A stretch of 64,000 nt of DNA from a virus: IMG/VR virus record IMGVR_UViG_3300009305_000018; one strand, written 5' to 3'. Each line of letters starts with the position of its first letter. The stretch's first letter is position 1. This document shows, one piece after another, positions 15,391-40,436 of the stretch. The translations under genes and the position numbers were made by a program. The notes under the pieces are model-generated. The model was given only the letters and a program-made list of their open reading frames with translations. It did not search any database and was not told the DNA's origin.

Positions 15391-15451
15391 TATATTGATT
15401 TATTCGCGTATAAATACTTGGAATTAAATGGAATTTAAAGGAGGGAGGAAA

Positions 15452-15781
15452 TTGAGTGGTGTAAACTTGGATGTTATTGATAATGTCGACAAGTCACGCG
15501 ACCGAATCAAAAGAGGATTACTCAATCAATTATCAGCCGATGGCGTTGACGGTGAGCATTACACAGATATGATTGACAAGTATTTGACTATGTGGGATAT
15601 GGCCCAGGCATTAGAAAAAGACTTTCGCGAAGAAGGCGTAAAAATCTTCTCCAATACTGGATCTAAAATAAATCCTTCAGTACCTGAGTATGCAAGGACG
15701 AATAATCAAATGCTGCGGTTGCTTTCTGAATTAGGATTGAAGCCCGTAAGACAAGAGCCTGAAGATAATGAAGGATATTAA
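15452..15781 (+). CDS. terS: Terminase small subunit (P27 family)
   Basis: D..DKYL.MWDMAQAL..D..EEGV, KINPSV....N.QML.LL.ELGL; SD AAGGAGGGAGG before TTG 15452. Confidence 0.85.
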   Translation: MSGVNLDVIDNVDKSRDRIKRGLLNQLSADGVDGEHYTDMIDKYLTMWDMAQALEKDFREEGVKIFSNTGSKINPSVPEYARTNNQMLRLLSELGLKPVRQEPEDNEGY

Positions 15782-17393: not shown

Positions 17394-17409
17394 AAGGGGG
17401 TGATATAAA

Positions 17410-19291: not shown

Positions 19292-19316
19292 ATACAAAAA
19301 ATGGAGGAATTAAACA

Positions 19317-20462: not shown

Positions 20463-20481
20463 ACAAAAGGAGTGAAAGATT

Positions 20482-20703
20482 ATGCCTTACAAGGTAATTA
20501 AGCAATTCAAGGATAAAGAAGATAAAGGCAGGTTGTATGAGGTGGGCGACGAGTATCCGAAAGGAAGCTTTAAACCTACCAATAAACGCTTAAATGAATT
20601 ATCCGAACTTCATCCACACTACAAGGCCGCATTCATCAAGGAAGAAGAACAGAAAAAACCTGTAGACAAGAAGCAACCAAAAGATTCAAAAAGCAAGGAG
20701 TGA
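20482..20703 (+). CDS. Small capsid-adjacent protein
   Basis: YKVIKQFKD....LYEVGDEYP...RLNEL, typical after the major capsid gene. Confidence 0.7.
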   Translation: MPYKVIKQFKDKEDKGRLYEVGDEYPKGSFKPTNKRLNELSELHPHYKAAFIKEEEQKKPVDKKQPKDSKSKE

Positions 20704-20708
20704 TGTAA

Positions 20709-21008
20709 ATGGCTATCACGCCCTTAGAACTAACTGAATTCAAAGATCGCATGCGCATTGAGGATAACGATGAAGATGAAAATCTTACACGTATCCTCTC
20801 GGCGTCTTTTTTTTCCTTGAAAACAGCTTGCGGAGATTACGATTTGACGAACGAATCATTCAAAGAACTTGTTTTTGAACGTTCCAGGTATGCGTATAAC
20901 GATGCACTGGAATACTTCAATACGAACTTTTTGAGTCAGATTAATAGTCTTGGAGTAGGTAAGGCTCTTGAAGAAATTCGAGTAGGTGATACCGATGCAA
21001 CCATTTAA
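20709..21008 (+). CDS. Head-tail connector (gp6-like)
   Basis: FKDRMRI...DEDENL; YAYNDA.E.F..NF. Confidence 0.85.
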   Translation: MAITPLELTEFKDRMRIEDNDEDENLTRILSASFFSLKTACGDYDLTNESFKELVFERSRYAYNDALEYFNTNFLSQINSLGVGKALEEIRVGDTDATI

Positions 21009-21354
21009 GTACAAGCCTAAGCTAAACGCCGGAGATTTAAGACAGACGCTACTTTTTCGATACGAAGGTGAAGGGCAAGACGAAGACGGTTATCCATCCA
21101 CAGTTGATATTGATTACATTTCCACCAAAGCGAAGTTAAGAACCTTGAAAGGTAGAACGTTTTATGCGGCTGCCCAAGAGAATATGGAGAATAGTCGAGA
21201 GTTTACTATTCGGTATCGTAAGGCGCTTGATGAAAATGAGAGACCTAGCGGTTTATTCGTAATGTGGAACGGAAAAAGGCATGAAATCGTATCTATTGAA
21301 AATGACGACGGTTTAAATGCTTCAATGACTGTCTTTTTAAAGGTTGTGGATTAA
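20995..21354 (+). CDS. Head closure / head-tail adaptor
   Basis: NAGDLR, FTIRYR, RHEIVSIEND. Confidence 0.85.
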   Translation: MQPFKYKPKLNAGDLRQTLLFRYEGEGQDEDGYPSTVDIDYISTKAKLRTLKGRTFYAAAQENMENSREFTIRYRKALDENERPSGLFVMWNGKRHEIVSIENDDGLNASMTVFLKVVD

Positions 21355-21735
21355 GTGGAACTTAAATTCGAAGGACTGGATGCGTTGCATCGGCGGCTAG
21401 CTGATATGGCTAACTTCAAAGCAACTGAAAAAGTAACGCTTGAAAAAGCAGGTGAACATTTACGGAACAAAATCGAAGAAAATGTTTACTCATTCGGTTT
21501 GAAAAAACGCTCAGGCAAGTCAGAAAAAAGTTTTGTGCTTAATCGTGAAATCATAAACGGTACTATAAAAGTCGGGTTGTCTAATCAGAGTAATGACGCG
21601 TTTTATTTGTACTATCACGAACTAGGCACTTCGAAGATTCCTGCTCGACCGTTCATGCGTCCTACTTTTGAACAGGAGAAAGCGAAAATCGAACAGATCA
21701 TGGCTCAAGAGATAAGGAGGGGGTTAGGGATATGA
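21355..21735 (+). CDS. HK97 gp10-like tail completion protein
   Basis: FYLYYHELGTSKIPARPFMRP. Confidence 0.88.
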   Translation: MELKFEGLDALHRRLADMANFKATEKVTLEKAGEHLRNKIEENVYSFGLKKRSGKSEKSFVLNREIINGTIKVGLSNQSNDAFYLYYHELGTSKIPARPFMRPTFEQEKAKIEQIMAQEIRRGLGI

Positions 21736-22064
21736 ACAGTTTGATAATGAGCACTCTTAAACCTACTGGAGTTCCTGTCTACCCCCTCAACTATCCGGGC
21801 GAAGCAACAACGTATATTACGTTCTTTGAATACAACGAGATGGGCGCTCTTTACGCAGAAGATGTGGAAGTAAAGACGCGCTATTCCTATCAAGTTGATA
21901 TTTGGTCAAAAGGTAATTATACGGCTGTCGTTAAACAGGTATTCGAATTAATGACAGCTGCAGGATTCAGACGTAACGGCGCGCAAGAACTTTACGAAAA
22001 AGATACGAAGATAAATCATAAAGTTTTCAGATTTTATTATGACAACACACTAGGAGGAATTTAA
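21732..22064 (+). CDS. Tail terminator-like protein
   Basis: YITFFEYNE, YQVDIWSK, ELYE.DTK..HK..RF. Confidence 0.8.
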   Translation: MNSLIMSTLKPTGVPVYPLNYPGEATTYITFFEYNEMGALYAEDVEVKTRYSYQVDIWSKGNYTAVVKQVFELMTAAGFRRNGAQELYEKDTKINHKVFRFYYDNTLGGI

Positions 22065-22066
22065 TT

Positions 22067-22654
22067 ATGGCAGGAGTACAAATTGGGTTAAAAGATTTAT
22101 TCTTTGCAGAGATTGACGAAACGACAGGTACGTACGGTACGCCCTATAAGATTGCAAAGGCAATTGAAGCATCGGTGACGGCAAACGTTAGTACCGTGGT
22201 TCTCTACGCTGACGATGGAGCGGCAGAAACGGCAAGTTCTGAGGGTGAAACAGAAATTTCACTCGGGATTGACCAACTGACTAATGAAGTTTATGCAAAA
22301 TTGCTAGGCAAAACAATCAATAGTGATGGTGTAGTACAAGATTCAAGCGGCGATATCGCTCCAAAAGGCGCTTTGATGTTCCGTTCACTTAAATCCAACG
22401 GAGGGTATCGCCACATTGTGTACTACAAAGGTTCATTCGCGCCACCAGAAGAGTCTTTCACAACTAAAGGTGAATCTATCGAATACAACACACCTACGAT
22501 TGTGGGGACGTTTGTACACTCTGACACTGTATTGAATGCTAAAGGAGAAGGTTTGAAACGTAGCGTTGTAGATTCTGACGACACTGCACTATCAGATCCT
22601 ACTATTGTCACGAACTGGTTCACAGCTGTTTACGAAGAAGTACCAACACCTTAA
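22067..22654 (+). CDS. Major tail protein (phi13 family)
   Basis: IGLKDLFFA, LYADDG, ALMFRS, YYKG.F. Confidence 0.9.
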   Translation: MAGVQIGLKDLFFAEIDETTGTYGTPYKIAKAIEASVTANVSTVVLYADDGAAETASSEGETEISLGIDQLTNEVYAKLLGKTINSDGVVQDSSGDIAPKGALMFRSLKSNGGYRHIVYYKGSFAPPEESFTTKGESIEYNTPTIVGTFVHSDTVLNAKGEGLKRSVVDSDDTALSDPTIVTNWFTAVYEEVPTP

Positions 22655-22665
22655 TAAAAACTAAC

Positions 22666-22696
22666 AGGGAGATGGGAAACCGTCTCTCTTTTTATT
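22666..22696 (+). terminator. Intrinsic terminator after the major tail gene
   Basis: AGGGAGATGG-GAAA-CCGTCTCTCT followed by TTTT. Confidence 0.8.
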
Positions 22697-22724
22697 TACT
22701 TAAAAATTGGAGGAATGATGGAAT

Positions 22725-23075
22725 ATGGCTAAAGCTTCGACAGCGAAAGTAATGAAAGACGAAGGTGTAAAAATCACGCTCGACAAAGAACGTACTCTTA
22801 AATTCGATATGAATACGCTTTGTGAATTGGAAGATAAGGGCATGGGGTTCGAAGACATAGTTAAAGGTCTGAACGAAAGAAACTTCAATAAAATCAGAAC
22901 GATATTGTATGCCATGTTTGCGCACGAAGAAGATGAGGACTTCACAGAAAAGCATGTGGGCGCATTAGTAGGTGTGAAGAATATCGAGAAAGTTATAACC
23001 GCATTAGGAGAATCGCTGTCAACCGCGATGCCTGAAGGCGATGACGAAGAAGAGGGAAACGAAACGGGGAAGTAA
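22725..23075 (+). CDS. Tail assembly chaperone (gpG-like)
   Basis: LDKERTLKFDMNTLCELE; between major tail and tape measure genes. Confidence 0.85.
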   Translation: MAKASTAKVMKDEGVKITLDKERTLKFDMNTLCELEDKGMGFEDIVKGLNERNFNKIRTILYAMFAHEEDEDFTEKHVGALVGVKNIEKVITALGESLSTAMPEGDDEEEGNETGK

Positions 23076-23272
23076 GTGATGGACCGACAGAAATTCCATA
23101 CGACTTCTTTATATACATCGGCACTGTCCATTTAAATAGAACCGAATCAGAAGTGTGGAGGATGACACCGCGAAAGATTCTTTCGTTGTGGAACCGTCAC
23201 GCTATTTTTAATGGTTGGAAAAAGGAAAAAGCGAAATCACAAAAAGTCTATGCCGACCAGGTGCAATGGTAA
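22725..23272 (+). CDS. gpGT-like extended chaperone via -1 frameshift at G_GGA_AAC (23054-23060)
   Basis: In-frame X XXY YYZ heptamer; -1 frame open to TAA 23270-72, encoding YDFFIYIGTVHLNRTESEVWRMTPRK. Confidence 0.8.
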
Positions 23273-23284
23273 AGGGGTGAAATT

Positions 23285-26200
23285 ATGGCAGAGGATATAG
23301 GTAATTTAGCGATAAAACTCTCCATCGACTCGGCTAAGTTTGAACAATCAATGGCTAGTATTGACCGTAACTTAAAAGCGATGGGACAGGAAATGCGCGG
23401 CTTACAGAACCATGGTAATGCTTGGGGTCAGTCCACAGCGGGGCTAACATCCAAACAAGACGCGCTATCCCGCATGCTCAGTGGACAACAAACCAAGGTT
23501 GAGAGATTGAGAGCGGCTTATGACGCAAGCAAAGCTGCTACTGGTGAAAACTCAGTCGAGACAGAACGACTTGCTATTCAATTAAACCGCGCTACCGCTG
23601 AATATAACCGGACTGAAGCTGAATTAGCGCAAGTAGCTGCAGCACTTCAACGGCAACGGGATGAATTGCGGCTGAGTGAAAGTTCATGGACACAGCTAGG
23701 CGAACGTATGCGAGCTGTCGGGGCTGTCATGTCAAACGTAGGCAAGGAAATGACCAAAATCGGGAAAAATATGTCGATGAAGGTTACTGCTCCAATTATG
23801 TTGGTAGGTACTTTAGCTACCAAAGCAGCTGTCGAGTTTGAAAGTTCCTTCGCAGGAATTAGAAAAACGGTTACTGCAACAGAAGAAGAATTTGCCGAGC
23901 TCGAAAAAGGTATTCGCGATATGGCTAAGTCCGGTCCCACTGCTGCAACTGAGTTAGCCGCAATTGGTGAATCGGCTGGGCAATTGGGCATTGAGACTAA
24001 AAATATATTAGCTTTCACGAGCACGGTTAGTGATATTGCGGTAGCTACTAACATGACTGCTGAACAAGCGGCTACAGACTTCGCAAGGTTTGCTAATATC
24101 ACAAAAATGCCACAGACGGAATTTGATAAACTCGGTTCCAGTATCGTTGCACTAGGTAACAACTTCGCAACAACAGAGTCCGAAATCATGGCAATGGGTA
24201 TGAGGTTAGCAGGAGCAGGTGCCCAAGTAGGCATGAGTGAAGCCGACATACTCGGATTGTCTACAGCCCTTACTTCAGTAGGAATCGAAGCTGAAATGGG
24301 AGGTTCGGCAATATCCAAAGCGATGGTCCGGATGCAGTTAGCTTCTACTAGTGGTTTTACAGGACTTCAAGAAGTTCTAGGCAAAACAGGGATGACGGTT
24401 AGAGAATTACAAATGATGGCGTCCCACAGTGGTAAAGCCTTTGGGCATTTGGCTGAAGATATGGGCATGACCAAGAAAGAGTTAAATTCACTCTTGACAG
24501 CAGGTGTGGATTTAGAAAACTTCGGTAAAATTGCAGGAATGACGGGCGAAGAATTTAAAACAGCCTTTGAGAAGGATGCTGTTGGTGCGCTTGGTGCGTT
24601 TATTAACGGTTTAGGTACTGCAGAAGAAGCAGGAGATTCAGCTATTAACATGCTTCAAGAAATGGGTATTTCAGAAGTTAGACTTCGTGATGCTTTACTT
24701 CGTGCTGGTAATGCGAGTGAACTTTTCGCGGGTGCGGTTGATCTCTCTAATGAATCGTGGGAAGAAAATAACGCCTTAACTAATGAAGCGGCTCAACGTT
24801 ACGCAACAACGGCCTCACAGTTAGAAACGTTTAAAAATAAAATGGTTGACTTAGGTATTACTTTAGGCGGAATCATTATCCCGGTCTTACTGAAGATTGT
24901 GGAAGCCATCGAACCATGGATTGAAAAGTTTGCAGAACTAAGCAAGACTTCGCAGAAAACTATCCTTGTTATTGCAGGAATAGCCGCTGCTATTGGTCCT
25001 GTTTTAGTTGTTGTAGGTGCATTGGTTAGTTCGGTAGGCGCAATAATGACTGCCTTCGGTACAGCATCGATGGCAATCGCAGTCATGACTACAGGGGTGG
25101 CATCGGCAGTACCAGGAGTAGGAGCATTAGCGGCAGTATTTACAGCGTTAACAGGACCAATCGGAATAGCTATTGCGGCAATCGCAGGTATTGGTATCGG
25201 AGTAGGATTACTAGTCAATCATCTATCAAAAGATGCGATACCAGAAGTTGATAGATTCGGTACAGGCGTTTCGGAAGCTACCCAAAAAGCACTTGGTAGT
25301 TTCTTCGAATTATCCGATGGTGCGTCTCAATCCTTAATGGATATGAGTATTCGAAATACAGTCGTGACGGGTGAAATGGCTTCATCTATGATTGACCAAT
25401 TTAATACTATGAATACGCAGATATTGGAAGGACTAAATACCAATCACGCGGAACGCATGGCAGCTACGTCATCATTCTTCCTAAATTCATCCGTGTTAAC
25501 AGATGCAGAAGAAGCGAAGATATTACAAAAACAAGAAAACAATCACACCCTAGACGTCCTCTTGCTAGAATCCAAAAATGCAAGAATCGCCGAAATCATG
25601 AATGCGGCAAAAAATGCGAAGCGAGACTTGACTGAAGCGGAAGCTGCCGAGATTAATAACATTAAAGACAGCATGAATAAATTCGCGGTAAAAGCATTGT
25701 CTGCTAGTGAAGTTGAACAGAAAATTATTATGGAAAAAATGAAGCAATCGGCAGGAGATTTATCTGCACAGCAAGCAGCGGAAGTTGTCAAGAACTCAGC
25801 CGCACAACGTGAAGGTACAGTCAAGGAAGCGGAAAAGCAATTTGATGAAACTGTAGGCGAAATTATCCGTATGCGTGACGAGACAGGCGTTATCACGGCT
25901 GAACAAGCTACCAAGATGATTGCCGAAGCTACTAGGGCAAAAGATGAAACAGTGAAACATGCTGAGAATATGCACAAAGATGTTGTCAAAGAAGCGCAAG
26001 CGCAAGCTTCAGGCCATATTGAACAAGTAAACTGGGAGACTGGCGAAATCCTTTCTAAGTGGGAAGTCTTCAAGAATAAGACGAAGACTGTATTTAGCGA
26101 CATTGCAAAAGGAATTCAAGACGGTTGGAATAAAGCCTGGACTTGGACGAAAGAAAAAGTTCAATCAATTATGACGTCTGCCACTGAAAAATTTGAGGAA

Positions 26201-28051
26201 ATGAAGAAAGCTGTCGGCGACAAAATGACAGAAGTTAAAACGAAGATTTCCGAAAAATGGGACGAAGCAATGAAGTTCTTTAAAAACATCGACTTGAAAC
26301 AAATCGGCAAGGACATTATACAAGGTCTTGTTGACGGTATAACCGACAAAATGAAAGTAGTAGCAGATGCTATAAAAGGCATTACTGACAAAATTAAAGG
26401 TGCTTTCAAGAAGGAAATGGAAACCGCGTCACCATCTAAAGTTATGATTCGTAGCGGTAAAGATGTGGGTGACGGTATTGCTATCGGTATCACTTCCACA
26501 GAAGGCACAAACCAAAAAGCCATCGAAGGTGTCGCAAAAGTACTATCCACAGCCGCTAAAAAGAATGCAGAAGAAATCACTAAGATTGCCACTGAAGCTG
26601 AGAAGAAGCGTACAGAGGTTCAAGCTGATTTCGCTAAGAAGCGTGCTGAACTCGGGCGGAAATCTAACCAATCTTCTCAAACTGCATTGAAAACTTCAAA
26701 GAATAAAAAAGGCGAGATTGTTACCACTGGTACACAAAGAGTCCATAACATTCGTGCTGATGCTTCTTCTAAATTGACTAAACTCAATGAGGACGAGCAG
26801 AAGAAACTCGCTAGTATTAACGAAAAAGCGTGGAAGGATATGCAGAAGAAAGAAGCTGAAATATCAAAGGTCCGTCTGGAATCCGTCAAGACTTATGTTG
26901 CTGATAAAAAATCATTGGACGAACTGTCACTCGTAGCTGAATCAGAAGTGTGGAGGAAATCACTCGCTCTGTTCCAGGTAGGCACAAAAGAACGTGTGGA
27001 AATTCAAAAGGCGTACCAGGCATCACTTAAAGCGATTAATGATGAAGTCATTAAGGTCAATGATGAATACGCAGGTAAGATGATGGTTATTAACGACCGA
27101 CTACGTAAGGAAGAAGAAGACCTTACGAATATGTATGTCAAATCTGTGGATGATCGCGCGAAGGCTCTTGAATCGTTTGCCAACACGTTTGATTTGTTCG
27201 AAATTAAGCTTGAAAAATCGGGTGCCGATTTACTTACGAACCTAACCTCGCAAGTTAACGGATTCAAATTGTGGCAATTGGAAATCGAGAAACTATCCAA
27301 TAAGGCTATTGATGACGGATTGATTGCTGAGTTACGCGAGATGGGACCGAAAGCTTTACCTGAACTACTTGCTCTTAACTCGCTCACTGGCGAGCAACTT
27401 ACTCAGTACTCTGCTCTGTATCAAGAGAAAGCCAAACTTGCACGTACGCAAGCGGAAGCTGAACTGATTGGTATGAAAACAGATACGAAGAAACGCATTG
27501 ACGAATTGCGCGTTACAGCAAACACGGAACTTGAAGCATTACGCGTTGAATGGACAACTAAAATTCAATCCATCACAAAAACGACGGATGATGAGCTGAA
27601 ATCACTTAAACAAATTGGTGTAAACGCAGGACAAGGATTACTTGATGGATTGGCTAGTATGGAAGGTTCGCTCGTAGCTAAAGCGCGATCAATCGCCCAA
27701 GCAGTAAGTGCAGCAATGGCATCTGCATTACAAGTTAAGTCACCTTCAAGGGTCACGATGAAGATTGGTCAATTCGTTGGCGAGGGTCTAGAAGTTGGAA
27801 TGGAAAATTCCATTGCGTCGATTAAAAACGCAGCTAGAGCGATGGCAAGTGCAGCTGTCCCAAATGTAGCAGCCTTTGCTAATCCACAACACGGTGGGTC
27901 AATGCACCCTGCTATTGCTTCGAGTGGAATCAACGGTGGAGATACGTATACGGGTCCTATATACGTTAATATCGACGGGAAAGATTTCGATAACATGCGA
28001 GATATTACGGACTTCTTTAGTCATCTAAAACAAGTAACTAGGAAGAGTTAA
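23285..28051 (+). CDS. Tape measure protein (TP901-like core)
   Basis: 1588 aa Ala/Gly-rich helical protein; FESSFAGIRKT, LGSSIVALGNNFATTESEI. Confidence 0.95.
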   Translation: MAEDIGNLAIKLSIDSAKFEQSMASIDRNLKAMGQEMRGLQNHGNAWGQSTAGLTSKQDALSRMLSGQQTKVERLRAAYDASKAATGENSVETERLAIQLNRATAEYNRTEAELAQVAAALQRQRDELRLSESSWTQLGERMRAVGAVMSNVGKEMTKIGKNMSMKVTAPIMLVGTLATKAAVEFESSFAGIRKTVTATEEEFAELEKGIRDMAKSGPTAATELAAIGESAGQLGIETKNILAFTSTVSDIAVATNMTAEQAATDFARFANITKMPQTEFDKLGSSIVALGNNFATTESEIMAMGMRLAGAGAQVGMSEADILGLSTALTSVGIEAEMGGSAISKAMVRMQLASTSGFTGLQEVLGKTGMTVRELQMMASHSGKAFGHLAEDMGMTKKELNSLLTAGVDLENFGKIAGMTGEEFKTAFEKDAVGALGAFINGLGTAEEAGDSAINMLQEMGISEVRLRDALLRAGNASELFAGAVDLSNESWEENNALTNEAAQRYATTASQLETFKNKMVDLGITLGGIIIPVLLKIVEAIEPWIEKFAELSKTSQKTILVIAGIAAAIGPVLVVVGALVSSVGAIMTAFGTASMAIAVMTTGVASAVPGVGALAAVFTALTGPIGIAIAAIAGIGIGVGLLVNHLSKDAIPEVDRFGTGVSEATQKALGSFFELSDGASQSLMDMSIRNTVVTGEMASSMIDQFNTMNTQILEGLNTNHAERMAATSSFFLNSSVLTDAEEAKILQKQENNHTLDVLLLESKNARIAEIMNAAKNAKRDLTEAEAAEINNIKDSMNKFAVKALSASEVEQKIIMEKMKQSAGDLSAQQAAEVVKNSAAQREGTVKEAEKQFDETVGEIIRMRDETGVITAEQATKMIAEATRAKDETVKHAENMHKDVVKEAQAQASGHIEQVNWETGEILSKWEVFKNKTKTVFSDIAKGIQDGWNKAWTWTKEKVQSIMTSATEKFEEMKKAVGDKMTEVKTKISEKWDEAMKFFKNIDLKQIGKDIIQGLVDGITDKMKVVADAIKGITDKIKGAFKKEMETASPSKVMIRSGKDVGDGIAIGITSTEGTNQKAIEGVAKVLSTAAKKNAEEITKIATEAEKKRTEVQADFAKKRAELGRKSNQSSQTALKTSKNKKGEIVTTGTQRVHNIRADASSKLTKLNEDEQKKLASINEKAWKDMQKKEAEISKVRLESVKTYVADKKSLDELSLVAESEVWRKSLALFQVGTKERVEIQKAYQASLKAINDEVIKVNDEYAGKMMVINDRLRKEEEDLTNMYVKSVDDRAKALESFANTFDLFEIKLEKSGADLLTNLTSQVNGFKLWQLEIEKLSNKAIDDGLIAELREMGPKALPELLALNSLTGEQLTQYSALYQEKAKLARTQAEAELIGMKTDTKKRIDELRVTANTELEALRVEWTTKIQSITKTTDDELKSLKQIGVNAGQGLLDGLASMEGSLVAKARSIAQAVSAAMASALQVKSPSRVTMKIGQFVGEGLEVGMENSIASIKNAARAMASAAVPNVAAFANPQHGGSMHPAIASSGINGGDTYTGPIYVNIDGKDFDNMRDITDFFSHLKQVTRKS

Positions 28052-28078
28052 CGTCACACTGAGAAAGGAGGTTATCAA

Positions 28079-30016
28079 GTGGCGAATTATTTATTTGATA
28101 AATATAACGTTGCGTTTGGTCCGTGGAGTGGAGAGGTACACACATATAGTCCGAACGGCGGTTCTACAGGTCCTCAATTTTGGGGGTACTACGAACAACC
28201 TTTCTGGAATGGTGACGCGTACGTGAATACTGAATTATCGCGATTAATGAACCCACAAACCCACTGGTCCGCCAGTAATTATGCAACCAGTTCATCTAAA
28301 ACACATTGGAAGTTCAATGGTTATACAAGCGAATATTCAGCGACGTACGACCTAACCACTTACTCTAGGACCCGAAGCGCGTCCCCGACAACACTAGTTC
28401 AAACTGGGATAGTCGGAACTATTAACGAGTATCCAATTCACGGTTATCACAGCGACGGTTTCTATTACATCCGAACAGGTATTGAAAACAAGCCTTTGAT
28501 AACGTCACCAAACGGCGGAGAATCATTCAACGAACTTCACACAATCACGTTTTCCGACAACAAACCGACGGCGGGTATCCGATACCAAATACAACTGTCC
28601 CTTAATAACGGACAAACCTGGAAAGATATCATTGCACTAACAACAGTCGGAGCTACTTCCTATCCTTACAATTTCATTAATGAACCGGCAACCTCGACGG
28701 CAAAAGTTCGCGTCCGCGCTTACGATGGTCAAAACTACGGCGCGTGGGACGAATCAAACGGAGTATTCACGATTCAACACAATATCGCTCCGACGAATCC
28801 GACGAATCTTACACCAAGTGGAATCATTGTTGACAGAACAAAGACACAGCGATTCACATGGAAACACAATGATGATGATGCGCAGTCCAAAGTAAGCGTC
28901 GAATGGCGCCCACAAGGAACGACGGGATGGCACATAAAAGCGGCGAGTGGACCGGATCAATTTTACTTCATGCCGGGAGACACTTTCCCTAACGGTCAAA
29001 TTGAATGGCGCGTCCGCACTTATGACCAACAGAATCTATTCAGCCCTTACTCAGCTATAGCAGTATTCACATCTGCTGAACCGACTAATGCGCCGACAAT
29101 TGTTCAACCTGTGACACCTGTTTCGATTTCACGTCCTGTTGTCGAATGGATGGGTGGTGCTCAAGCATCTTATCAAATCATTATCGAGGACGCGTTGGGA
29201 GTCGTAGTGTGGGATACAGGCGAAGTTACTTCATCTATCAAAGCGCGGACTGTCGGTGTTGATTTACTCAACGGCGGTACGTATACAATTAAGTTGCGTA
29301 TTAAAGATGCTAGTGGTCTATTTTCATCCTTTGTCGATACAACAATCGTCATATCCTATACACCACCTACCAAACCATCTGTAGCAACTTACAAAGAAAA
29401 AGCGGGCATAAGATTTGTGATAGACAACCCACCTTCGAGTGGTACACAACCGACAATTGCGGAAAATGAAATCTACAAGCAAGTTAATAATGAGTGGGTA
29501 CGCATTGCGAAAAATTTAATTTCCGCATATACGGATTACGCGCTTGCAAGTGAGGAAATCGCCAATTATCGAATAAGAGCACTCGGTAACAACGGGACTT
29601 TCAGCGAATCGGACGTCATCGAAGCAAAAGCACCCAAATTAATAGGCGTGTTCCTCCACGATATTCAAGATCCTGAGATGACTCTTCATCATTTTAAATA
29701 CAACGGAAACGAAGGTCGGAGTGATAATTTACAACGAGAACACGCTTTTCGCCAATTTGCAGGACGGACAAGACCTGTTATCGAATATGGTACATTTGCT
29801 GATTATCAGATGCATGTAACCATCAAATTGTTGCGGGATGAAGTTGGTCGAAAACGATTAAGTCAATTTGTAAACGATGGAGCGATCCTCTTATACCGTG
29901 ATGGTCGCGGACGGAAGATGTATACGACATTGCCCACGCTTTCAATGGATGAAGTCTTTTACGGAAATGACGTTAAGCTTACATTCACAGAAATTGATTA
30001 CAGAGAGGAGGTGTAG
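28079..30016 (+). CDS. Distal-tail-position protein with multiple Fn3/Ig-like repeats
   Basis: ITSPNGGE; repeated VRVRAYD / WRVRTYD / IKLRIKD / YRIRALG; directly after the tape measure gene. Confidence 0.65.
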   Translation: MANYLFDKYNVAFGPWSGEVHTYSPNGGSTGPQFWGYYEQPFWNGDAYVNTELSRLMNPQTHWSASNYATSSSKTHWKFNGYTSEYSATYDLTTYSRTRSASPTTLVQTGIVGTINEYPIHGYHSDGFYYIRTGIENKPLITSPNGGESFNELHTITFSDNKPTAGIRYQIQLSLNNGQTWKDIIALTTVGATSYPYNFINEPATSTAKVRVRAYDGQNYGAWDESNGVFTIQHNIAPTNPTNLTPSGIIVDRTKTQRFTWKHNDDDAQSKVSVEWRPQGTTGWHIKAASGPDQFYFMPGDTFPNGQIEWRVRTYDQQNLFSPYSAIAVFTSAEPTNAPTIVQPVTPVSISRPVVEWMGGAQASYQIIIEDALGVVVWDTGEVTSSIKARTVGVDLLNGGTYTIKLRIKDASGLFSSFVDTTIVISYTPPTKPSVATYKEKAGIRFVIDNPPSSGTQPTIAENEIYKQVNNEWVRIAKNLISAYTDYALASEEIANYRIRALGNNGTFSESDVIEAKAPKLIGVFLHDIQDPEMTLHHFKYNGNEGRSDNLQREHAFRQFAGRTRPVIEYGTFADYQMHVTIKLLRDEVGRKRLSQFVNDGAILLYRDGRGRKMYTTLPTLSMDEVFYGNDVKLTFTEIDYREEV

Positions 30017-30019
30017 CAT

Positions 30020-31207
30020 GTGGATTTAGCACGTGATGGCTTTTCACACGATGCAGTAAAAATGGTGCTACACTCTCCGAATCGTCAGATTGATTTTCGT
30101 TACGAGTTATTAGATAAAGAAAATCGTAGGAAACGAGATTTAAGCAACGTGACAAGCGCAGACATCAGCCAGTCGATGCTCGCACAGATTAAACGCACCG
30201 CAAAATTTAGTCTGATAGAAAACGAGCAAGGCATTGATTACCTCAATGATCGTATCAAACCTTACATGAGACTGTGGATGCCACCAGGCAGGATAATAGC
30301 AAGAGAATACGCTTTCTTTAGCCACATTCATTCAATGGAATTAAACCGAATAGAAGGGAACGAAAACTCTGGTTGGATTGAATTCCCCCTTGGAGTTTTT
30401 TTATTGTCATCCCCAACACGGAAAGATGATGTCGGCTCTATTGTTCGTGATATTGAAGCTTATGATTTATCCCTTATATTACGAGATGACAAGTTTCTTG
30501 GTAGGCACACCATTGTGGAGGGTACAGCCTATTATGATGCTTTAATCGGCATAATAATGAGTGCTGGCATTCGTCATTACAACATCGAGCAGACGGACAA
30601 AAAACTACCGCGAACGATTGAGTTTGAACCAGGTGCGGAAAAAATTGAAGCCATCAACGAGCTACTTTCCCAACTTAATTACACGCCAATTTATGTGGAT
30701 GAAGAAGGGTATTTCGTTTCTCGTTCATATATATCTCCTGCTGAACGGTCAGCGGACTACGCCTACATTGACGATGAACAGTCAGTGACATTAATTGGAG
30801 CAGAAGAGGAACTTGATACGTTTGACGTTCCGAATGTTTTCACTGTGATTCGGACAAACGAAGAAGAAGGTCCACTTGTTTCGACGTACGTAAATAATAA
30901 TCCAGACAGCCCGCTGTCGACAGTAAGTCGTGGCCGAAACATCGTAGATCATCGAGAGATTGATAACATTGCGGATCAACAGGCGCTTGATTCGTTTGTA
31001 GGGAGAATAGCGTTTGAAGCAAGTCAAGTGTACGGTCGTATCCGTTTTAAGTCGGCACTAATGCCTGTACATGGTTATGCGGATGTATTACAGATGCGTT
31101 ATCGGGAATTAAAGATTGACGGGAAATACCTTGAATTAAATTGGACTATGAAGTTAGAAGTTGGCGGGGATATGGAACACGAATTACGACAGGTGGTGAC
31201 GTTATGA
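30020..31207 (+). CDS. Baseplate hub / Tal-like protein
   Basis: IKRTAKFSL, EFPLGVFLLSSP, IEAINELL..LNY, SRGRNIV; position in tail module. Confidence 0.7.
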   Translation: MDLARDGFSHDAVKMVLHSPNRQIDFRYELLDKENRRKRDLSNVTSADISQSMLAQIKRTAKFSLIENEQGIDYLNDRIKPYMRLWMPPGRIIAREYAFFSHIHSMELNRIEGNENSGWIEFPLGVFLLSSPTRKDDVGSIVRDIEAYDLSLILRDDKFLGRHTIVEGTAYYDALIGIIMSAGIRHYNIEQTDKKLPRTIEFEPGAEKIEAINELLSQLNYTPIYVDEEGYFVSRSYISPAERSADYAYIDDEQSVTLIGAEEELDTFDVPNVFTVIRTNEEEGPLVSTYVNNNPDSPLSTVSRGRNIVDHREIDNIADQQALDSFVGRIAFEASQVYGRIRFKSALMPVHGYADVLQMRYRELKIDGKYLELNWTMKLEVGGDMEHELRQVVTL

Positions 31208-31425
31208 TTACACCTGAAGAATTTGTAGGTTTATTCGGCAAAGAGAAACAATCGAAAAGTGTTCGGTTCGGAACAATTACGGACGCTACCGGAAAGCCGC
31301 GCTTACGACTGGATGGCGAAACAATTGCGTCAGTTAAGCGTTACCCACGATTGGCGTCATACACTCCGGTAATTGGTGATAGGGTTATGATTTTCAGTGG
31401 CGTGGTAATAGGTAAGATCATTTAG
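31204..31425 (+). CDS. Small baseplate-associated protein
   Basis: RFGTI, KRYPRLASYTP..GDRV. Confidence 0.65.
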   Translation: MITPEEFVGLFGKEKQSKSVRFGTITDATGKPRLRLDGETIASVKRYPRLASYTPVIGDRVMIFSGVVIGKII

Positions 31426-31435
31426 GAGGGATATC

Positions 31436-31792
31436 ATGAATGCGACAGAACAACCACTAGTTAAATCACAAGGTATTCCAGCGCCACAATATTTTAATAA
31501 ACAAGGAAATAAATTCGAATTTATTGAAGGTGAACACGGGGCAAACGCTTTTATCCAAAAAGGCACAGTTGCGATGGAATCATGGCAAGGAAACGCGAAC
31601 GAAGTAAGGACTTTCCCGAGTGAACGTTTCGGCTTTTCCATCGTTAATGACGGGTTGACCGATGTAACATTTACGATTAACGGAAATACAAGAGTTGTTA
31701 AAAAGTATGAAGTATACGGAGCGTTGTTTGAACCGTTCACAGCTGTGGACATCGTGACAACTAGTGCATATCGAGCGGAGGTGCTTAGATAA
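31436..31792 (+). CDS. Tail-associated hypothetical protein
   Basis: SD AGGAGGG; 118 aa beta-rich. Confidence 0.6.
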   Translation: MNATEQPLVKSQGIPAPQYFNKQGNKFEFIEGEHGANAFIQKGTVAMESWQGNANEVRTFPSERFGFSIVNDGLTDVTFTINGNTRVVKKYEVYGALFEPFTAVDIVTTSAYRAEVLR

Positions 31793-34533
31793 TGGCATGG
31801 GGTACAAACGGTGGAAAACAAGCTATTGAAGCGGCAAAAGAAGCGTCGGTAATGGCTTATGCCGCAGAAAATGCCGCACAGGAAGCATTTGCGGCAAAGC
31901 AATTGACATTGGAAGCTACAGCAAATTCAAAAATAGAAACTGATTATATCAAAGGCAAGCGTCCGTTAATCGAACAATCTATCGTAGATGCAGCTGCCTC
32001 TAAAACTCAGAGTGCTAATGCGGTGGTCGTGTCAGGTGCAGCTAAAACTACAGCGGAAACGGTACGGGGTGAATTCGATCGAGTAGTTGCAGAAGCTGGA
32101 TCTAACAATCCAGAGGTCGTACAGGCTCGTGGTGGAGAGGTCAATTTAGGCGTCAGGATGGATAAGGTTACTACGCAGTTGGCGGAAAAGGCGAATCAAA
32201 CAGACATCGTTAAGGCAGACGGTATTTCTATCGTTGTTGATGACACAGGCGTGTTGTCGGCAATAGGGACATCGGGCGGCGGAGTACTGACGAACTTCGA
32301 CCCCGAAACGACTTACGCGGCGAGTGACATTATTACGTTTATGGGTAAATTGTACGTGTCTAGGGTGTCTTTTAACGTGGGTAATGTACCCTCAGCGTTA
32401 ACCAATTTTTGGAGGGAGTACGATGGCGGAGCGTTTGAAATTACCGAGGGGCGTAATCTTTACTCACCGGGTCTTGCGAAAGATGGACAGACAATATCTT
32501 ACGGTAAATCGGGATATACACCTTTAGCCACCTCGTCAGTTCTTGGGCGGTTCCGAGTTGAAAAAAATACCACGTACACCATATCGACTCCAAATTTAAC
32601 ACACCCGATTACGAATAGGTTTATTTGTCTCAACATAAACGGAGAATATCTCGGGGTGTCCTCTGCTATATCGACTTATACTGTTGCGGCAGGCATTACG
32701 GATAGCTTGCGAAGAGTAGAGAATGGTCGGAGTCAAAGAACGTTCACGATTCACGCGGATAGCGAAATTGCCTACGTGGACACTAGTTTACTAGACCCCG
32801 CCGTAGCGCATACCACGGAGTCTTTTGAAGAACTTCGCAAATTGATTCAAATAGAAAAGGGGGTTGCTTTCACTTCTTTCGAGCCTCATGGAACGAGTCA
32901 TATGGAACTTAAATCAGGCGCTTTACCAGTAGGAGCAATTTCGGAATTAAACATGTCTGATGATATGAAAAAAGGAGTCGTTGGGGGTATTGCATCTCAT
33001 AATGATTTAGTATTACTAAAAAACACCTTATCGAAAAGCGAAGGGTTGACCATAACTATAGATAATACTCAACAAGACAGTGACATAGCGGTTCGTACAC
33101 CTTTTAATACTGAATCGGATTTAGTGCATTATGCGCGAGTGCTTAAAAATGACGGAAGAAATAACGTAATAAATTTATTAGGGGCAAGACTAATACCTAA
33201 TTCTTCCGCAGACGCATACTCTATCGGCGTAAATTTGCAGAGTGCAACGGATGACGCTACCCCTCCTTATTTTAACGGGGATTATGCGGGAGCAAATCAC
33301 GGGTATTCAAAGGTTATTAAAGTAACGCTGACTAATCATGGGAAAACTTTTGCAGACATCGGCAGCGAGTGGACTGATAACGTAAACTCTAAATTCTACA
33401 TCATAAAGATTATTGATAGCAACGCTCTATGGATTTTGGGGACAAATACTGCATCCGTTGATTCGCCGTATAGTTCTACTAAATATGTCGGTGGAAGCTT
33501 AATACACGTAAATGGCGCGGTTAATACGACCACACTTGCCGGATTCACCTACGCATCAGATCAATTAATACCCACTACAAAGAATGTCGTAAAAACTGTT
33601 TTACTTGACGGCATTAAAAAAGTATTTGAAAACGGAACATATGCCGCTAAGTATGTAGATATTGCAGAAAATTATGATTTGGTTAACCCTTTTTCGATGT
33701 TAGAAAGGTTGATAGCGAACAAGCCGGTAAACGGGTACACTAAAAACCCTTCACTTGAAATTGGTGACGCGGTGGCAACTATTTCCAACGTACACAGAAT
33801 ACTAAGCGACGGCACGATGTTAGTTGTCAGTGATTTTATAAATTTCTCTAATATCACTTTTCGCAGATGGGGTTTGGTGCAACAACAAAAACCAATAGAT
33901 GCGTATAACGGCGGAGTTCATCGTACTATCCCTAAAACTTTGCCGATAACCATAGATAGCATACATTATGATTTAAGAACGCCTAGAAGTTTAGATTTAG
34001 CGAATCCTGCATTAAACTATACTCCAGAGTATTGGGAAGTGCCTAGTTCGCCGCCAGACCGCTCGGTTGATTTATTCAAGGACAGAGATAACAATAATAA
34101 AGTTGGCTTCGCGTTAGGGTATTTACCCTCAGAAATCAGAAAATCGAATTTATCAAACGCGTGGCTTCTTAACTCTACAAAAAAGAGTTATCCAAATTTT
34201 ATAAGCCACGATACGGATAAACCTTTACCAAAAGATTCAATAACTCAAGGGGTAGCCTACCGGAAATATTATGATTTGGAAACGGCGAGGGACAATATTT
34301 CTTTTTACCACATACCATTGGGCGATGTTACTTATGTGTATATTGATGCGTTCCAATCTTTTGATGATTTTATAAAACTACCGTCGGAATTTATGGGAAA
34401 AAAGATTGAAGTTATTGAGAAAACTGAAAACGTAGTGATTTTTGGTAATGTTGTAACAGGTAGATTAAGAATTAAAGTGAGTGAAAAAATCCCTATGTTC
34501 GGCTATGCAGTATTAAAAATAACTACGCAGTAG
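31792..34533 (+). CDS. Receptor-binding / tail fibre protein
   Basis: Helical N-terminus, EVVQARGG...TTQLAEKA hinge, CBM5/12-like FDPETTY...W segment, beta-rich C-terminus. Confidence 0.7.
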   Translation: MAWGTNGGKQAIEAAKEASVMAYAAENAAQEAFAAKQLTLEATANSKIETDYIKGKRPLIEQSIVDAAASKTQSANAVVVSGAAKTTAETVRGEFDRVVAEAGSNNPEVVQARGGEVNLGVRMDKVTTQLAEKANQTDIVKADGISIVVDDTGVLSAIGTSGGGVLTNFDPETTYAASDIITFMGKLYVSRVSFNVGNVPSALTNFWREYDGGAFEITEGRNLYSPGLAKDGQTISYGKSGYTPLATSSVLGRFRVEKNTTYTISTPNLTHPITNRFICLNINGEYLGVSSAISTYTVAAGITDSLRRVENGRSQRTFTIHADSEIAYVDTSLLDPAVAHTTESFEELRKLIQIEKGVAFTSFEPHGTSHMELKSGALPVGAISELNMSDDMKKGVVGGIASHNDLVLLKNTLSKSEGLTITIDNTQQDSDIAVRTPFNTESDLVHYARVLKNDGRNNVINLLGARLIPNSSADAYSIGVNLQSATDDATPPYFNGDYAGANHGYSKVIKVTLTNHGKTFADIGSEWTDNVNSKFYIIKIIDSNALWILGTNTASVDSPYSSTKYVGGSLIHVNGAVNTTTLAGFTYASDQLIPTTKNVVKTVLLDGIKKVFENGTYAAKYVDIAENYDLVNPFSMLERLIANKPVNGYTKNPSLEIGDAVATISNVHRILSDGTMLVVSDFINFSNITFRRWGLVQQQKPIDAYNGGVHRTIPKTLPITIDSIHYDLRTPRSLDLANPALNYTPEYWEVPSSPPDRSVDLFKDRDNNNKVGFALGYLPSEIRKSNLSNAWLLNSTKKSYPNFISHDTDKPLPKDSITQGVAYRKYYDLETARDNISFYHIPLGDVTYVYIDAFQSFDDFIKLPSEFMGKKIEVIEKTENVVIFGNVVTGRLRIKVSEKIPMFGYAVLKITTQ

Positions 34534-36630: not shown

Positions 36631-37233
36631 CTATTCAACCCTGCGCCATCCATTGACAACAAAATCCCCCACATACATCAACATATCTGCCCAAGCAATA
36701 ACAGTTTTATACGGATTTTCAGAGTTGATATATTTCATGACCTTCTTTAATTCGGTTTGGTGTTCCTCGGTTAGTCGTTTTCTCTTAGAGTAATTTCTCA
36801 TAAGAGTGTGGATGAAATCGGGATCACGGATGCTGGCGCTAAGTAAGATTGCGACTGCACGAGAAGGAGTGACATCTAGGGCGAATGCTAACAATCCAAT
36901 GTTTTCAAAATCATCTGTTGTAAATTTAGCGGTGATTCGTTCATGAAAGCTTTTATCCTTTTTACGCTGCAATGAAGGATTATCTAAACTACCAAAGTAG
37001 ATGGTATTTCCAAGTCGCACCCCTCTCCGAAAGTTAGGCTTCAATAATCCCATTACCTCTTTTGATTGAATACCTTCCGCACACAGGATCACCGCAATGT
37101 CTTTGACAGGTAAATCGCATATGTCGGACAAGCGGTAGATGTTTTTCTTTAAATGAACAGGAATCACTGGCTTCACATCTCGCTTTTTATCCGACCTAAC
37201 CTTTCTTTCTCCCCTATCCCCCACCGTTTCCAC
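36631..37233 (-). CDS. Putative tandem RHH-like DNA-binding protein
   Basis: RKVRSDKKRDVKPVI..HLK..IYRL and RITAKF..DDF..IGLLAFALD.TPSRAVAILL; divergent from the ParM gene. Confidence 0.55.
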   Translation of the reverse strand: METVGDRGERKVRSDKKRDVKPVIPVHLKKNIYRLSDICDLPVKDIAVILCAEGIQSKEVMGLLKPNFRRGVRLGNTIYFGSLDNPSLQRKKDKSFHERITAKFTTDDFENIGLLAFALDVTPSRAVAILLSASIRDPDFIHTLMRNYSKRKRLTEEHQTELKKVMKYINSENPYKTVIAWADMLMYVGDFVVNGWRRVE

Positions 37234-37332
37234 CCTCTCTTATCGTGGTATTTGATTAGGACACATTCCGCAGTCCTAACTATAAATCTACTATACGCAG
37301 GATAGGGGAGTGGTATGAATCACTATTTATAT

Positions 37333-37361
37333 GAATATTTGGTTCAATCTACTAATACACT
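37333..37361 (+). promoter_or_regulatory. Sigma-E-like sporulation promoter upstream of the ParM gene
   Basis: GAATATT-14 bp-AATACACT versus the B. subtilis sigma-E consensus (G/T)(A/C)ATA(A/C/T)(A/C/T)-14-CATACA(A/C)T. Confidence 0.55.
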
Positions 37362-37443
37362 ATGTAATGCAACGGTAATTCATTGAGAGTGTGGATGACT
37401 AGTTTGGTAATGCAGGAGTATTACATTATAGGAGGATGATAGA

Positions 37444-38304
37444 ATGGGTGGATTAATACTGGGATTAGATGCAGGGAATCACATGGCGAAGGTGGCAGGA
37501 CCTTACGGGGTGGATTCATATAGAACAGCCATCTGTGATTGGTTCGAACGGGATGTAGAAGAGTCATTCGGTAACGATGATATGGAATTTGAAATCTGTG
37601 GCAGAAAAGGGTTTGCAGGATCCATTGCTGAACATGAGGATGAATTCGGTGGTGGTTCAATGTTTGGCGATACCAAGGCGCATGAGGATACGAAAATAAG
37701 AGTGCTACTAGCAATCGTTCGTTATGTTAAAAAATACTGTCCACAAGAATACTCAGTAAAAATAGTGGTCGGGCAGCCAGTGAAAACACATAAGGAATCC
37801 GAGAAAAAGAAAATCAAGGATATGTTAATTGGTCATCATAATTTTGTAGTAAACGGCGCTCATAAAAATATAACCATTGAAGCGGTAGAGGTAGCTACAG
37901 AGGGTGGTGGTGCGTTCTGGTCAAACCCCGACAATGGCACGATTAGAGTATTAGACATAGGTAGCGGCACGGTGAATGCGGTCACGACAAAAGATAAGAA
38001 GTTCATTAATAATTCGTCGGAGACATTTAACTTTGGCGTCGAAACGATTAAAAATAAAGCTGATTTAGATGGGTTGTCCCGCGGTATCATCCGAAATACT
38101 ACTAAATTGAAGTGGCATAAGAATGACCGGGTATACGTCTGTGGAGGGATAGCAGAACAAATAGCGCCTTATATAGAAGAACACTATGCAAATTCAGAGG
38201 TGGTCTATCCACAGTTGCAGTGCCAGGACGGTGTTATCGCGGTTCAATCTGTGTTTGCTAACGCGGTAGGATTCTATAACATCGCAAAGGGTGTTTACAG
38301 ATGA
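37444..38304 (+). CDS. parM: ParM/StbA-family actin-like ATPase
   Basis: Phosphate 1 GLDAGN, connect EGGGA, phosphate 2 LDIGSGT, adenosine CGGIA, connect 2 NAVGFY. Confidence 0.9.
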   Translation: MGGLILGLDAGNHMAKVAGPYGVDSYRTAICDWFERDVEESFGNDDMEFEICGRKGFAGSIAEHEDEFGGGSMFGDTKAHEDTKIRVLLAIVRYVKKYCPQEYSVKIVVGQPVKTHKESEKKKIKDMLIGHHNFVVNGAHKNITIEAVEVATEGGGAFWSNPDNGTIRVLDIGSGTVNAVTTKDKKFINNSSETFNFGVETIKNKADLDGLSRGIIRNTTKLKWHKNDRVYVCGGIAEQIAPYIEEHYANSEVVYPQLQCQDGVIAVQSVFANAVGFYNIAKGVYR

Positions 38305-38513
38305 GAAAAATTAAGACGACAAGTTTCAATCAACAAAATGGATATGAAGAAAGGTTGCTGGCATACGCTGAATCACCCGAACATGGTGACTATAGCAACT
38401 ACATCAAGCGATTGATTGGACGCGATATGGAGGGGCAGAGTCGCCCTTCAGTGACGGCATTCGTCGGCGCACCTATAGTTAAGGTGACGGATGATTTTAG
38501 CGGTTTCATTTAA
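38301..38513 (+). CDS. ParR-like RHH adaptor
   Basis: KTTSFN...EERLLAYA...YSNYIKRLI.RD; acidic/hydrophobic tail DDFSGFI; ATGA-coupled to parM. Confidence 0.7.
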   Translation: MRKIKTTSFNQQNGYEERLLAYAESPEHGDYSNYIKRLIGRDMEGQSRPSVTAFVGAPIVKVTDDFSGFI

Positions 38514-38937: not shown

Positions 38938-40338
38938 CTATAACCGATTGAATTTCATGTCCGTCACTTCGTACTCATAAGCCTTAGGAACACCGTTCTT
39001 ATCGCGTTTCACGCACGTTCTACTGAATGAAATCTCGTTTACGAACAACGCCATAAACTCAATCGCTTCATCTTTTGTAAGTGTATCGAAGTTTTCTAAG
39101 ACCATCCATCTGAACTTTTCCGCATCTTCAACACTGATTTCGACTTCCTCTTCTAATATCTCGTTTTGTAACGAAGCTATTTCTTCGTTAGCGGATTTTA
39201 TGTTTCTTTGGAATTCTTCGTATGTCATGAAGTCGTCGGCATACATTTGTTGATACTTCAATCTCTTTTGTTCTAATTTCGAAATCTCATTCGTAATTGA
39301 TCGTGTGGGAGCAGGGCTTTTCTTTTTTTCTAACTCCTTTCCTTCCAGTTTGTCGTTTTGAATCTTTTTCATGAATGCTTCTTTAATGTATTTTTCATTC
39401 ACACGAACAAAGCCGTCACCATTTTCATAGCATTTGTTGCAGCGGTAGCTATTTTCAGTCTTGACTAGCGTCCTAGAACACTGTGGACATTTTAGCATTC
39501 CCGAAAACAATCCGCGTGTGGGGGCCTGCAACCTTACTATGTTTTGCTTTTCTATCCTGCGTGACAAGTCCTCAAATTCTTCTGTCGAAATAATCCCCTC
39601 AAATGCTCCTTCCACACTCTTGCCTGCATATACAACAGTTCCGCACAACGCTCGATTGCGCAACACTTGTCGGACTGTCTGATGACTCCAGTTCGCCTTT
39701 CGCGTTCTAGTGGGTATATTGCGACGGTTTAACTCTTGTGATACTCCAGCGACGCTACCGAGTGATTTAAATAGCTCTATCATCAATAGCACAACTTCTT
39801 TTTCTTCATCGTCAATTACTCTTTTTTTATCCACAATCTTGTATCCATAAGGTTGGGCACCCGACGCTTCGTTATCAATCAATATCTTTTGTTCCATTGT
39901 TATCGTGACCCGTTCGCCAAGGTTTTCACGTTCCCATTGCGCCAAGAGCCCGACGAGTCCTATAAACATCCTACCCATCGCTGTGGTTGTATCGTAGTTC
40001 TCTGTCGCTGATTTAAAGGCGCACCCGTGTTCATCGAGCAAACTAAGCGTGTCGAAAAGGTCACGAATGTTCCTAGTCATGCGGTCTAACCTATACACTA
40101 GCAAGATATTTATTTTCTTGTTTATAATGTCTTTTTTTAATCGTATGAAATCAGGACGATTCATATCTTTAGCGGAGTGGCCGGGATCTACGTATAGTTC
40201 TGTTTTCGTCCATCCTTGGGATTCACAGAACAATTTAAGCAAACGTGTCTGTGTATCTATTGAGTACCCTTCTTTGGCGCGTTCCTCAGATGATACTCTG
40301 ACATATATCCCGACGGTTGCATTTGTATTGGTTTCGAT
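38938..40338 (-). CDS. int: Large serine recombinase (integrase); probable non-canonical ATC start
   Basis: Frame open upstream of the TTG call and contains catalytic YVRVSS (Ser at 40291-93); D.G.S....RP, VYRLDR, recombinase domain, CPQC..C Zn ribbon, coiled coil. Confidence 0.85.
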   Translation of the reverse strand: METNTNATVGIYVRVSSEERAKEGYSIDTQTRLLKLFCESQGWTKTELYVDPGHSAKDMNRPDFIRLKKDIINKKINILLVYRLDRMTRNIRDLFDTLSLLDEHGCAFKSATENYDTTTAMGRMFIGLVGLLAQWERENLGERVTITMEQKILIDNEASGAQPYGYKIVDKKRVIDDEEKEVVLLMIELFKSLGSVAGVSQELNRRNIPTRTRKANWSHQTVRQVLRNRALCGTVVYAGKSVEGAFEGIISTEEFEDLSRRIEKQNIVRLQAPTRGLFSGMLKCPQCSRTLVKTENSYRCNKCYENGDGFVRVNEKYIKEAFMKKIQNDKLEGKELEKKKSPAPTRSITNEISKLEQKRLKYQQMYADDFMTYEEFQRNIKSANEEIASLQNEILEEEVEISVEDAEKFRWMVLENFDTLTKDEAIEFMALFVNEISFSRTCVKRDKNGVPKAYEYEVTDMKFNRL

Positions 40339-40436
40339 TTGTGGCGCATCCCTTCTATATAGAAGAAAGAGTTTATTCTTTCTCCAAGCTGTAATTGCTA
40401 TCTAGTTGCTAGAATAGTTTCTTTTGTCTAATATAT

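Follow-up and report, generated by a model that had tools for sequence, protein, structure and literature searches.

A conserved sigma-E-type promoter motif beside paired operator-like boxes upstream of a phage ParM cassette

Does a ParM cassette carried by a phage draw its transcription from a sporulation sigma factor of the host? The question is raised by a short motif 5' of parM in the virus record IMGVR_UViG_3300009305_000018, which an initial annotation had likened to promoters of the mother-cell factor sigma-E. The window, by which we mean the whole stretch of 64,000 nt that was analysed, contains ORFs that recur at an offset of 41,360 bases, and it therefore runs more than once round a circular phage genome of ~41.4 kb. 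The phage has a replication module (a Mu Gam-like protein, AAA_24, a helicase and a D5-type primase), and the large + strand ORFs between this module and the lysis genes are taken to be the packaging and structural genes, with the holin and endolysin lying 3' of them. Past lysis the gene order runs through two reverse-strand genes, parM, a 70-aa gene, a reverse-strand HTH gene, a serine integrase and a cI-like repressor. A 141-aa protein encoded at 14010-14435 (+ strand), directly 5' of the presumed packaging ORFs, matches PHROG 36, a phage transcriptional regulator of the late-activator type, and a scan of 29 ORFs, all of them outside the large ORFs at ~15400-31800, gave no Pfam sigma-factor domain. 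The frame of the serine integrase (38938-40401, - strand) is open for 487 codons and has no ATG, GTG or TTG 5' of the catalytic serine (Y-V-R-V-S-S). Past that serine comes the earliest canonical start (40242), and a short overlapping ORF begins at an out-of-frame ATG; the anomaly may stem from a non-standard start codon, a frameshift or a fault in the assembly. A near-identical ParM was found on an IMG/VR contig, megablast of the region against phage records gave zero matches, and the nearest named ParM relatives (54-71% identity) are in Sporosarcina, Psychrobacillus, Lysinibacillus and Solibacillus; as these are genera of spore-forming Planococcaceae, the host of the phage is probably a spore-forming member of that family. 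The cassette and the region 5' of it hold the following features, listed in window coordinates.

36631..37224, - strand: divergent tandem ribbon-helix-helix (RHH) gene, 197 aa, AF2 model with pLDDT 81, conserved parMR partner
37290..37297, - strand: -10 element CGTATAGT of a candidate divergent promoter, 14 nt from TCATACC, also sigma-A-like as TTCATA-18-TATAGT
37312..37318, - strand: -35 element TCATACC of the candidate divergent promoter, similar architecture with spacing 14 at 17/29 loci
37333..37339, + strand: -35 element GAATATT of the candidate parM promoter, sigma-E type, KMATAWW 7/7
37354..37361, + strand: -10 element AATACACT of the candidate parM promoter, CATACAMT 7/8, abuts box 1 in the family
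37364..37384, + strand: box 1, putative parC / ParR operator, direct repeat D1, contains the predicted transcription start (~37367-37370)
37407..37427, + strand: box 2, putative parC / ParR operator, direct repeat partner
37430..37435, + strand: ribosome-binding site AGGAGG, 8 nt 5' of the parM ATG
37444..38304, + strand: parM, 286-aa actin-like ATPase, Pfam ALP_N E = 6e-15, phrog_691 'partition protein'
38301..38513, + strand: parR-like gene, 70 aa, start overlaps the parM stop, RHH-like N-terminus

Boxes 1 and 2 are related 21-nt units, 43 bp apart, between the motif and the ribosome-binding site. Metagenome and viral contigs, named genomes and a search of 370 genomes of the family supplied parM homologues, which yielded 38 distinct upstream regions (55-100% ParM identity), and paired operator-like boxes were found in 38/38 of these, 41-43 bp apart, mostly of the type ATTAC-N4-GTAAT, ending shortly 5' of the ribosome-binding site and differing in sequence by lineage. 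At homologous loci the -10 or the predicted start adjoins or overlaps box 1. A small gene overlaps or abuts the parM stop at every locus checked and is syntenic in 8/8 host genomes. Its ParR-like products have an RHH-like N-terminus (K-x-V-S-F, then two helices), a variable acidic linker and a C-terminal tail, where G-F-(L/I) is kept in most of the 27 relatives listed and probably contacts ParM; their DNA-reading strand differs by lineage, as do the boxes. Pfam and PDB sequence searches with the 70-aa protein returned no match, and a PDB sequence search returned nothing usable for ParM, likewise for ParR. The divergent gene is present at 29/38 loci; the best PDB matches of its model, all weak, are accessory chains of the F relaxosome, which we take to be TraY, and VirC2, and for the 197-aa protein we predict a tandem ribbon-helix-helix fold of the TraY/VirC2 type. 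By analogy, the layout of the cassette is that of a ParMRC locus with a minimal centromere/operator, in which ParR would bind the boxes as members of its family do.

The motif itself was described accurately at the outset. GAATATT and AATACACT stand exactly 14 nt apart (spacer 37340-37353), the sole mismatch to CATACAMT being an A in place of the first C, and 82 nt separate the end of the -10 from the parM ATG (37444), a distance that the initial annotation had given as about 80. Its statement that parM has no good sigma-A promoter was likewise borne out: a sigma-A consensus scan produced nothing pointing at parM, the best candidate (TTGAGA-17-GGTAAT) scores 7/12 and lacks the A at -11, and across the homologous regions there is no positionally conserved sigma-A promoter, the candidates being weak and scattered. 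With at most one mismatch, KMATAWW-N14-CATACAMT occurs only at parM in the 64-kb window (both strands scanned), against a chance expectation of 0.35 sites, and at least one match arose in 29/100 shuffles of the window; the single match is without significance by itself, and the annotators' own caution, that this was a post hoc match to a short AT-rich consensus, was apt for the lone site. A relaxed pattern showed no enrichment genome-wide (13 found vs 14 expected). A second sigma-E-like match, TCATACT-14-CATACTAT at 9006-9034 (- strand), is made of CATACT words at 10-bp spacing near a small reverse-strand gene and is probably an operator array, not a promoter of the sigma-E-like class.

Conservation 5' of homologous parM genes, which had been named as a way to judge the motif, gave a positive result: the pair recurs at 14-nt spacing beside the boxes in most diverged homologues. 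To avoid circularity, each region was anchored only on the -10-like word beside box 1, after which KMATAWW was located (at least 6/7), and the count was made over 30 non-redundant regions sharing <60% identity with one another. KMATAWW lies exactly 14 nt 5' of a C(A/G)TAnnAT abutting box 1 in 17/30 regions, while other spacings from 4 to 29 occur in 0-3 regions each (binomial ~2e-17, a figure that overstates independence as the regions are related by descent). A pattern calibrated on host promoters, KMATRWW-N14-CATANNNT at 11/12 or better, is found on the parM strand in 18/30 regions, compared with 3/30 for the opposite strand, 0.8/30 after shuffling, 1.5/30 when the spacing is wrong and 15/365 5' of other ORFs at the same loci (Fisher 1e-14). 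In the four closest relatives (92-100% ParM identity) the -35 block and the block formed by the -10 and box 1 are invariant, and 7/8 columns of the central spacer vary. Over about 12 lineages, in which the spacers are unalignable, the profile becomes G-(C/A)-A-T-A-(T/A)-T, 14 unconserved bases, then C-(A/G)-T-A-n-n-A-T, with the -35 A-T-A and the -10 T-A...T invariant. The A-T-A of the -35 is kept in 16/16 lineages and its fourth base is T in 16/16; the first -10 base is C in 14/16, the second is A or G, and CGTA is found in place of CATA in ~7/16. In homologues beyond the four closest relatives the best match to the sigma-E consensus falls repeatedly in the same place, with the -10 abutting box 1 and a spacing of 14. 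The -35 does not covary with the half-sites of the boxes, which change to GCATTGC, GTGCCAC, GTTATAC and others, and because the -35 is constant through these changes it is not a third ParR site. A second class of loci (Lysinibacillus, Psychrobacillus and phage PVJ1) has the promoter motif between the boxes with the -35 inside box 1; phage PVJ1, for example, carries a perfect TAATAAT-14-CATACAAT there. Motif, boxes and gene order are conserved across a prophage clade of spore-forming Planococcaceae. Among more distant parM homologues a comparable motif is absent in phages D6E, Flasso and pW4 and in B. cereus-group phages, and the CATAC words of phage Lietuvens are iterons. As the same design recurs in dozens of related prophages, its likeness to sporulation-type promoters is unlikely to have arisen by chance.

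The promoters of the likely hosts provide a direct comparison. In B. subtilis, spoIVA and spoIIID are classical sigma-E targets, and these two genes were our only calibrators. Both SpoIVA and SpoIIID are encoded in 5/5 cassette-bearing Planococcaceae genomes; the SpoIIM family is present in 1/5, and the upstream sites of spoIID, spoVR and spoIIP were ambiguous owing to uncertain gene starts or operon structure. Upstream of the spoIVA and spoIIID orthologues the best sites were all of spacing 14, such as GCATGAA-14-CATAAACT and GCATGAA-14-CATAGAAT, as well as TCATATT-14-CATATAGT, TCATATT-14-CATAAAGT and GCATACC-14-CATAAGAT, and some parM promoter motifs, GCATGAA-14-CATATCAT and TCATAAA-14-CATAGAAT, are almost identical to these host words. 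The host -10 starts with CATA in 9/9 well-matching spoIVA/spoIIID promoters; the tenth (L055) is a weak CGTG site elsewhere. SpoIVA is encoded in 26/26 parM-positive genomes of the family vs 276/370 overall (hypergeometric P = 4e-4, uncorrected for phylogeny). In three wastewater runs, two 150-nt contig pieces were found inside parM and none at the promoter, from which no inference on expression is possible.

Other sigma factors have the consensus sequences GHATR-18-CATXHTA (sigma-G), GCATR-15-GGHRARHTX (sigma-F), RWAGGAXXT-14-HGAAT (sigma-H) and AAC ... CGTA (sigma-W-like ECF factors). Compared by eye with these consensus sequences, the motif does not fit sigma-G, sigma-F, sigma-H, sigma-K, or ECF sigma-W and similar factors. 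For sigma-K the decisive position is the fourth base of the -35, where T as against C separates sigma-E from sigma-K promoters (PMC517825); sigma-K expects C, and the lineages all carry T.

The region between the divergent gene and parM appears to hold a second, oppositely directed promoter. The initial annotation had seen a weaker element, CATACCAC, facing the divergent gene; the word is present (complement of 37310-37317) but was wrongly parsed, as it is part of the -35 TCATACC and not a -10. As a divergent -10, CATACCAC is ruled out by the lack of a -35 at 13-15 nt. The architecture (A/G/T)(C/A)ATA...-14-C(A/G)TAnnnT recurs in 17/29 loci at a fixed distance from the conserved R-S-D-K-K motif, with 0-3 loci at other spacings. 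For the window the start of the divergent transcript is predicted near 37281-37284 (- strand). Here the divergent promoter also permits a sigma-A reading of fair quality, its TTCATA-18-TATAGT scoring 9/12.

We lean towards a reading in which a ParR-autoregulated pair of sigma-E-type promoters drives the three genes of the ParM cassette in the mother cell. The 210 bp that separate the tandem-RHH gene from parM would then contain two back-to-back sigma-E-type promoters, of which that of parM, GAATATT-14-AATACACT, would start transcription inside the first operator/centromere box. The ParR-like RHH protein would bind the boxes, both forming the partition complex and shutting off the promoter, as in plasmid ParMRC loci. 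The cassette would thus stay silent in vegetative lysogens; after asymmetric septation it would be transcribed by sigma-E RNA polymerase until ParR limited its own production. The cargo of the filament in the sporangium may be copies of the phage DNA carrying the boxes, which is the option we favour as speculation. From the sequence comparisons we infer sigma-E dependence and mother-cell expression. Of the initial proposal that the parM operon is wired to sigma-E, the sigma-E-type pair has held, being conserved and matching host spoIVA and spoIIID promoters; the role for an excised circle and the divergent -10 have not. Several observations count against the sigma-E reading: the -10 of the window lineage begins with A; roughly half of the family has CGTA where CATA is expected; at some loci the 3' end of the -10 runs into the left side of the repeated box and may be kept for ParR; in the Lysinibacillus/Psychrobacillus class the -35 is part of box 1, which leaves the -10 as the only independent element there; the compared regions share descent, by which the statistics overstate their independence; and the motif is missing from B. 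cereus-group phages and phage D6E. A partition system restricted to the mother cell also offers no obvious benefit to an integrated prophage.

Less probable, though it deserves serious weight, is that the motif is a real promoter without specificity for sigma-E, read weakly by sigma-A through TAnnAT without a -35, or with the help of a phage or host activator, so that the cassette would be expressed in vegetative lysogens or lytic growth like AlpAC of prophage CGP3. The last six bases of the -10 are always TAnnAT, with A at -11 and T at -7, and the fair sigma-A reading of the divergent window promoter agrees with this. One would expect a ParM for phage DNA handling to be made in the lytic cycle (PMC4446434), and the phage encodes a late regulator (phrog_36). 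However, a sigma-A -35 TTG is missing throughout, sigma-A-like candidates are scattered without a conserved position, and sigma-A requires neither the conserved G/T-C/A-A-T-A (-35 to -31) nor the C at -14; moreover, the late region of the window has no similar motif.

It is improbable that the two blocks serve to bind ParR or the tandem-RHH protein, as part of an extended centromere and not a promoter, with a coincidental likeness to sigma-E promoters. Such a role would suit the box half-site GTAATAA, which resembles KMATAWW and serves as the '-35' in class-2 loci, the 3' end of the -10, which belongs to the repeated unit at some loci, and the CATACT iteron array at 9006-9034, which itself gives a sigma-E-like match. 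Yet the -35 stays G(C/A)ATA(T/A)T while half-sites change completely, so that it does not co-evolve with ParR specificity, and this role would leave unexplained why the spacing is strictly 14 nt and why the elements are identical to those of host spoIVA/spoIIID promoters. Some promoter must also exist 5' of parM, because the upstream gene is either divergent or ends in a terminator-like hairpin and T-run, as read from the sequence. Least probable is that an AT-rich intergenic region happens to fit a short, degenerate consensus and has no function. The frequency of equal-quality matches in the window shuffles and the unenriched relaxed pattern would allow this, but comparative data already disfavour it, as position, spacing and both elements are kept over many lineages with diverged spacers.

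The position of the cassette in relatives bears on what it might do. In eight host genomes (L084-L091) parMR is the last module of the prophage and host genes begin 0.3-1.5 kb past parR; these include topoisomerase I (topA), a sulfatase-family protein, DUF2225, glycerol-3-phosphate oxidase and others, none of them sporulation genes. No homologue of the window's serine integrase lies within 13 kb of parMR in the 8 host genomes, and the integrase is outside the conserved parMR module. Being terminal in prophages and having no integrase homologue nearby, the cassette acts as a self-contained module that carries promoters of its own. The suggestion in the initial annotation that it might handle a circle excised by a serine recombinase during sporulation gains nothing from relatives, where the integrase homologue is absent and the flanks are ordinary host genes; a parMR serving a circle excised from a sporulation gene is not supported for them, and this reading could still apply to the window phage.

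Each component of the favoured reading is already known separately, namely ParMRC loci, prophage actins (AlpAC) and mother-cell-controlled prophage genes (sprB, spoIVCA). In plasmid ParMRC loci, upstream repeats overlap the promoter and the adaptor autoregulates. The phage cassette resembles type II plasmid loci (R1 parMRC, pSK41) in having an actin-like ATPase gene followed by a small gene for a putative RHH-like adaptor, with repeats 5' of parM that overlap the promoter and predict autoregulation by the adaptor. It differs in having two boxes about four helical turns apart in place of a 10-iteron array, in a third, divergent tandem-RHH gene, in its location on an integrase-encoding phage or at an integrated-prophage end, and in ParM and ParR sequences without a match to solved ParM or ParR structures; its promoter also appears to be of the sporulation-sigma type and not vegetative. 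The candidate promoter shares with the sigma-E promoters of the B. subtilis mother-cell regulon (spoIVA, spoIIID) a -35 of (G/T)(C/A)ATA(A/T)(A/T), 14-nt spacing (14 +/- 1 nt is usual for such promoters) and T at the fourth -35 position, and its -10 comes close to their CATA...T; the spoIVA/spoIIID promoters of the likely host family have the form of the B. subtilis ones. Unlike these, it is carried by a phage partition cassette and not a sporulation gene, and the window -10 starts with A. The promoters of sprB in SPbeta and spoIVCA in skin are assigned to mother-cell sigma factors. They are prophage genes transcribed in sporulation (PMC4191935), as is proposed here for the cassette; they are, however, recombination genes of elements that interrupt sporulation genes, whereas the phage cassette carries DNA segregation and, in relatives, has no link to a serine integrase and does not lie within sporulation genes. 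AlpAC/alpS of the Corynebacterium glutamicum prophage CGP3, also a prophage actin with a DNA-binding adaptor on phage DNA, is described as a system that supports viral DNA replication and transport (PMC4446434 and PMC5539076); its host is non-sporulating and no developmental sigma factor is involved. For phage and plasmid ParM alike, we found no report in the literature of sigma-E control, nor one of a sporulation sigma factor governing a partition or actin cassette.

Tentatively, and with more doubt than for the promoter itself, the tandem-RHH, ParM actin and ParR module may belong to the sigma-E regulon of a spore-forming host, such that temperate phages of Planococcaceae would assemble an actin-like machine for moving DNA in the mother cell alone. 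A first possible purpose would then be to position or partition phage genomes replicating in the terminally differentiated, soon-to-lyse mother cell, allowing virion production at no cost to the spore that retains the prophage; another would be to settle what becomes of phage DNA when the spore forms. The known cases of how temperate phages handle host sporulation are DNA trapped in spores, mother-cell prophage excision and phage-encoded sporulation-like sigma factors. If true, the reading would extend the sporulation regulon by a new class of phage genes and would suggest that the mother cell is a separate phage niche, which is testable in cultured carriers such as Psychrobacillus phage PVJ1, Psychrobacillus insolitus DSM 5 and Lysinibacillus composti DSM 24785. 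A further feature of the cassette is a minimal two-box centromere fused to a promoter. At seven loci of the Lysinibacillus/Psychrobacillus type, phage PVJ1 included (L003, L009, L010, L014, L037, L040 and L081), several copies of a TTCCTAG(A/G)-like word lie between the divergent gene and the boxes, 100-200 nt 5' of parM, and these words may be sites for the tandem-RHH protein.
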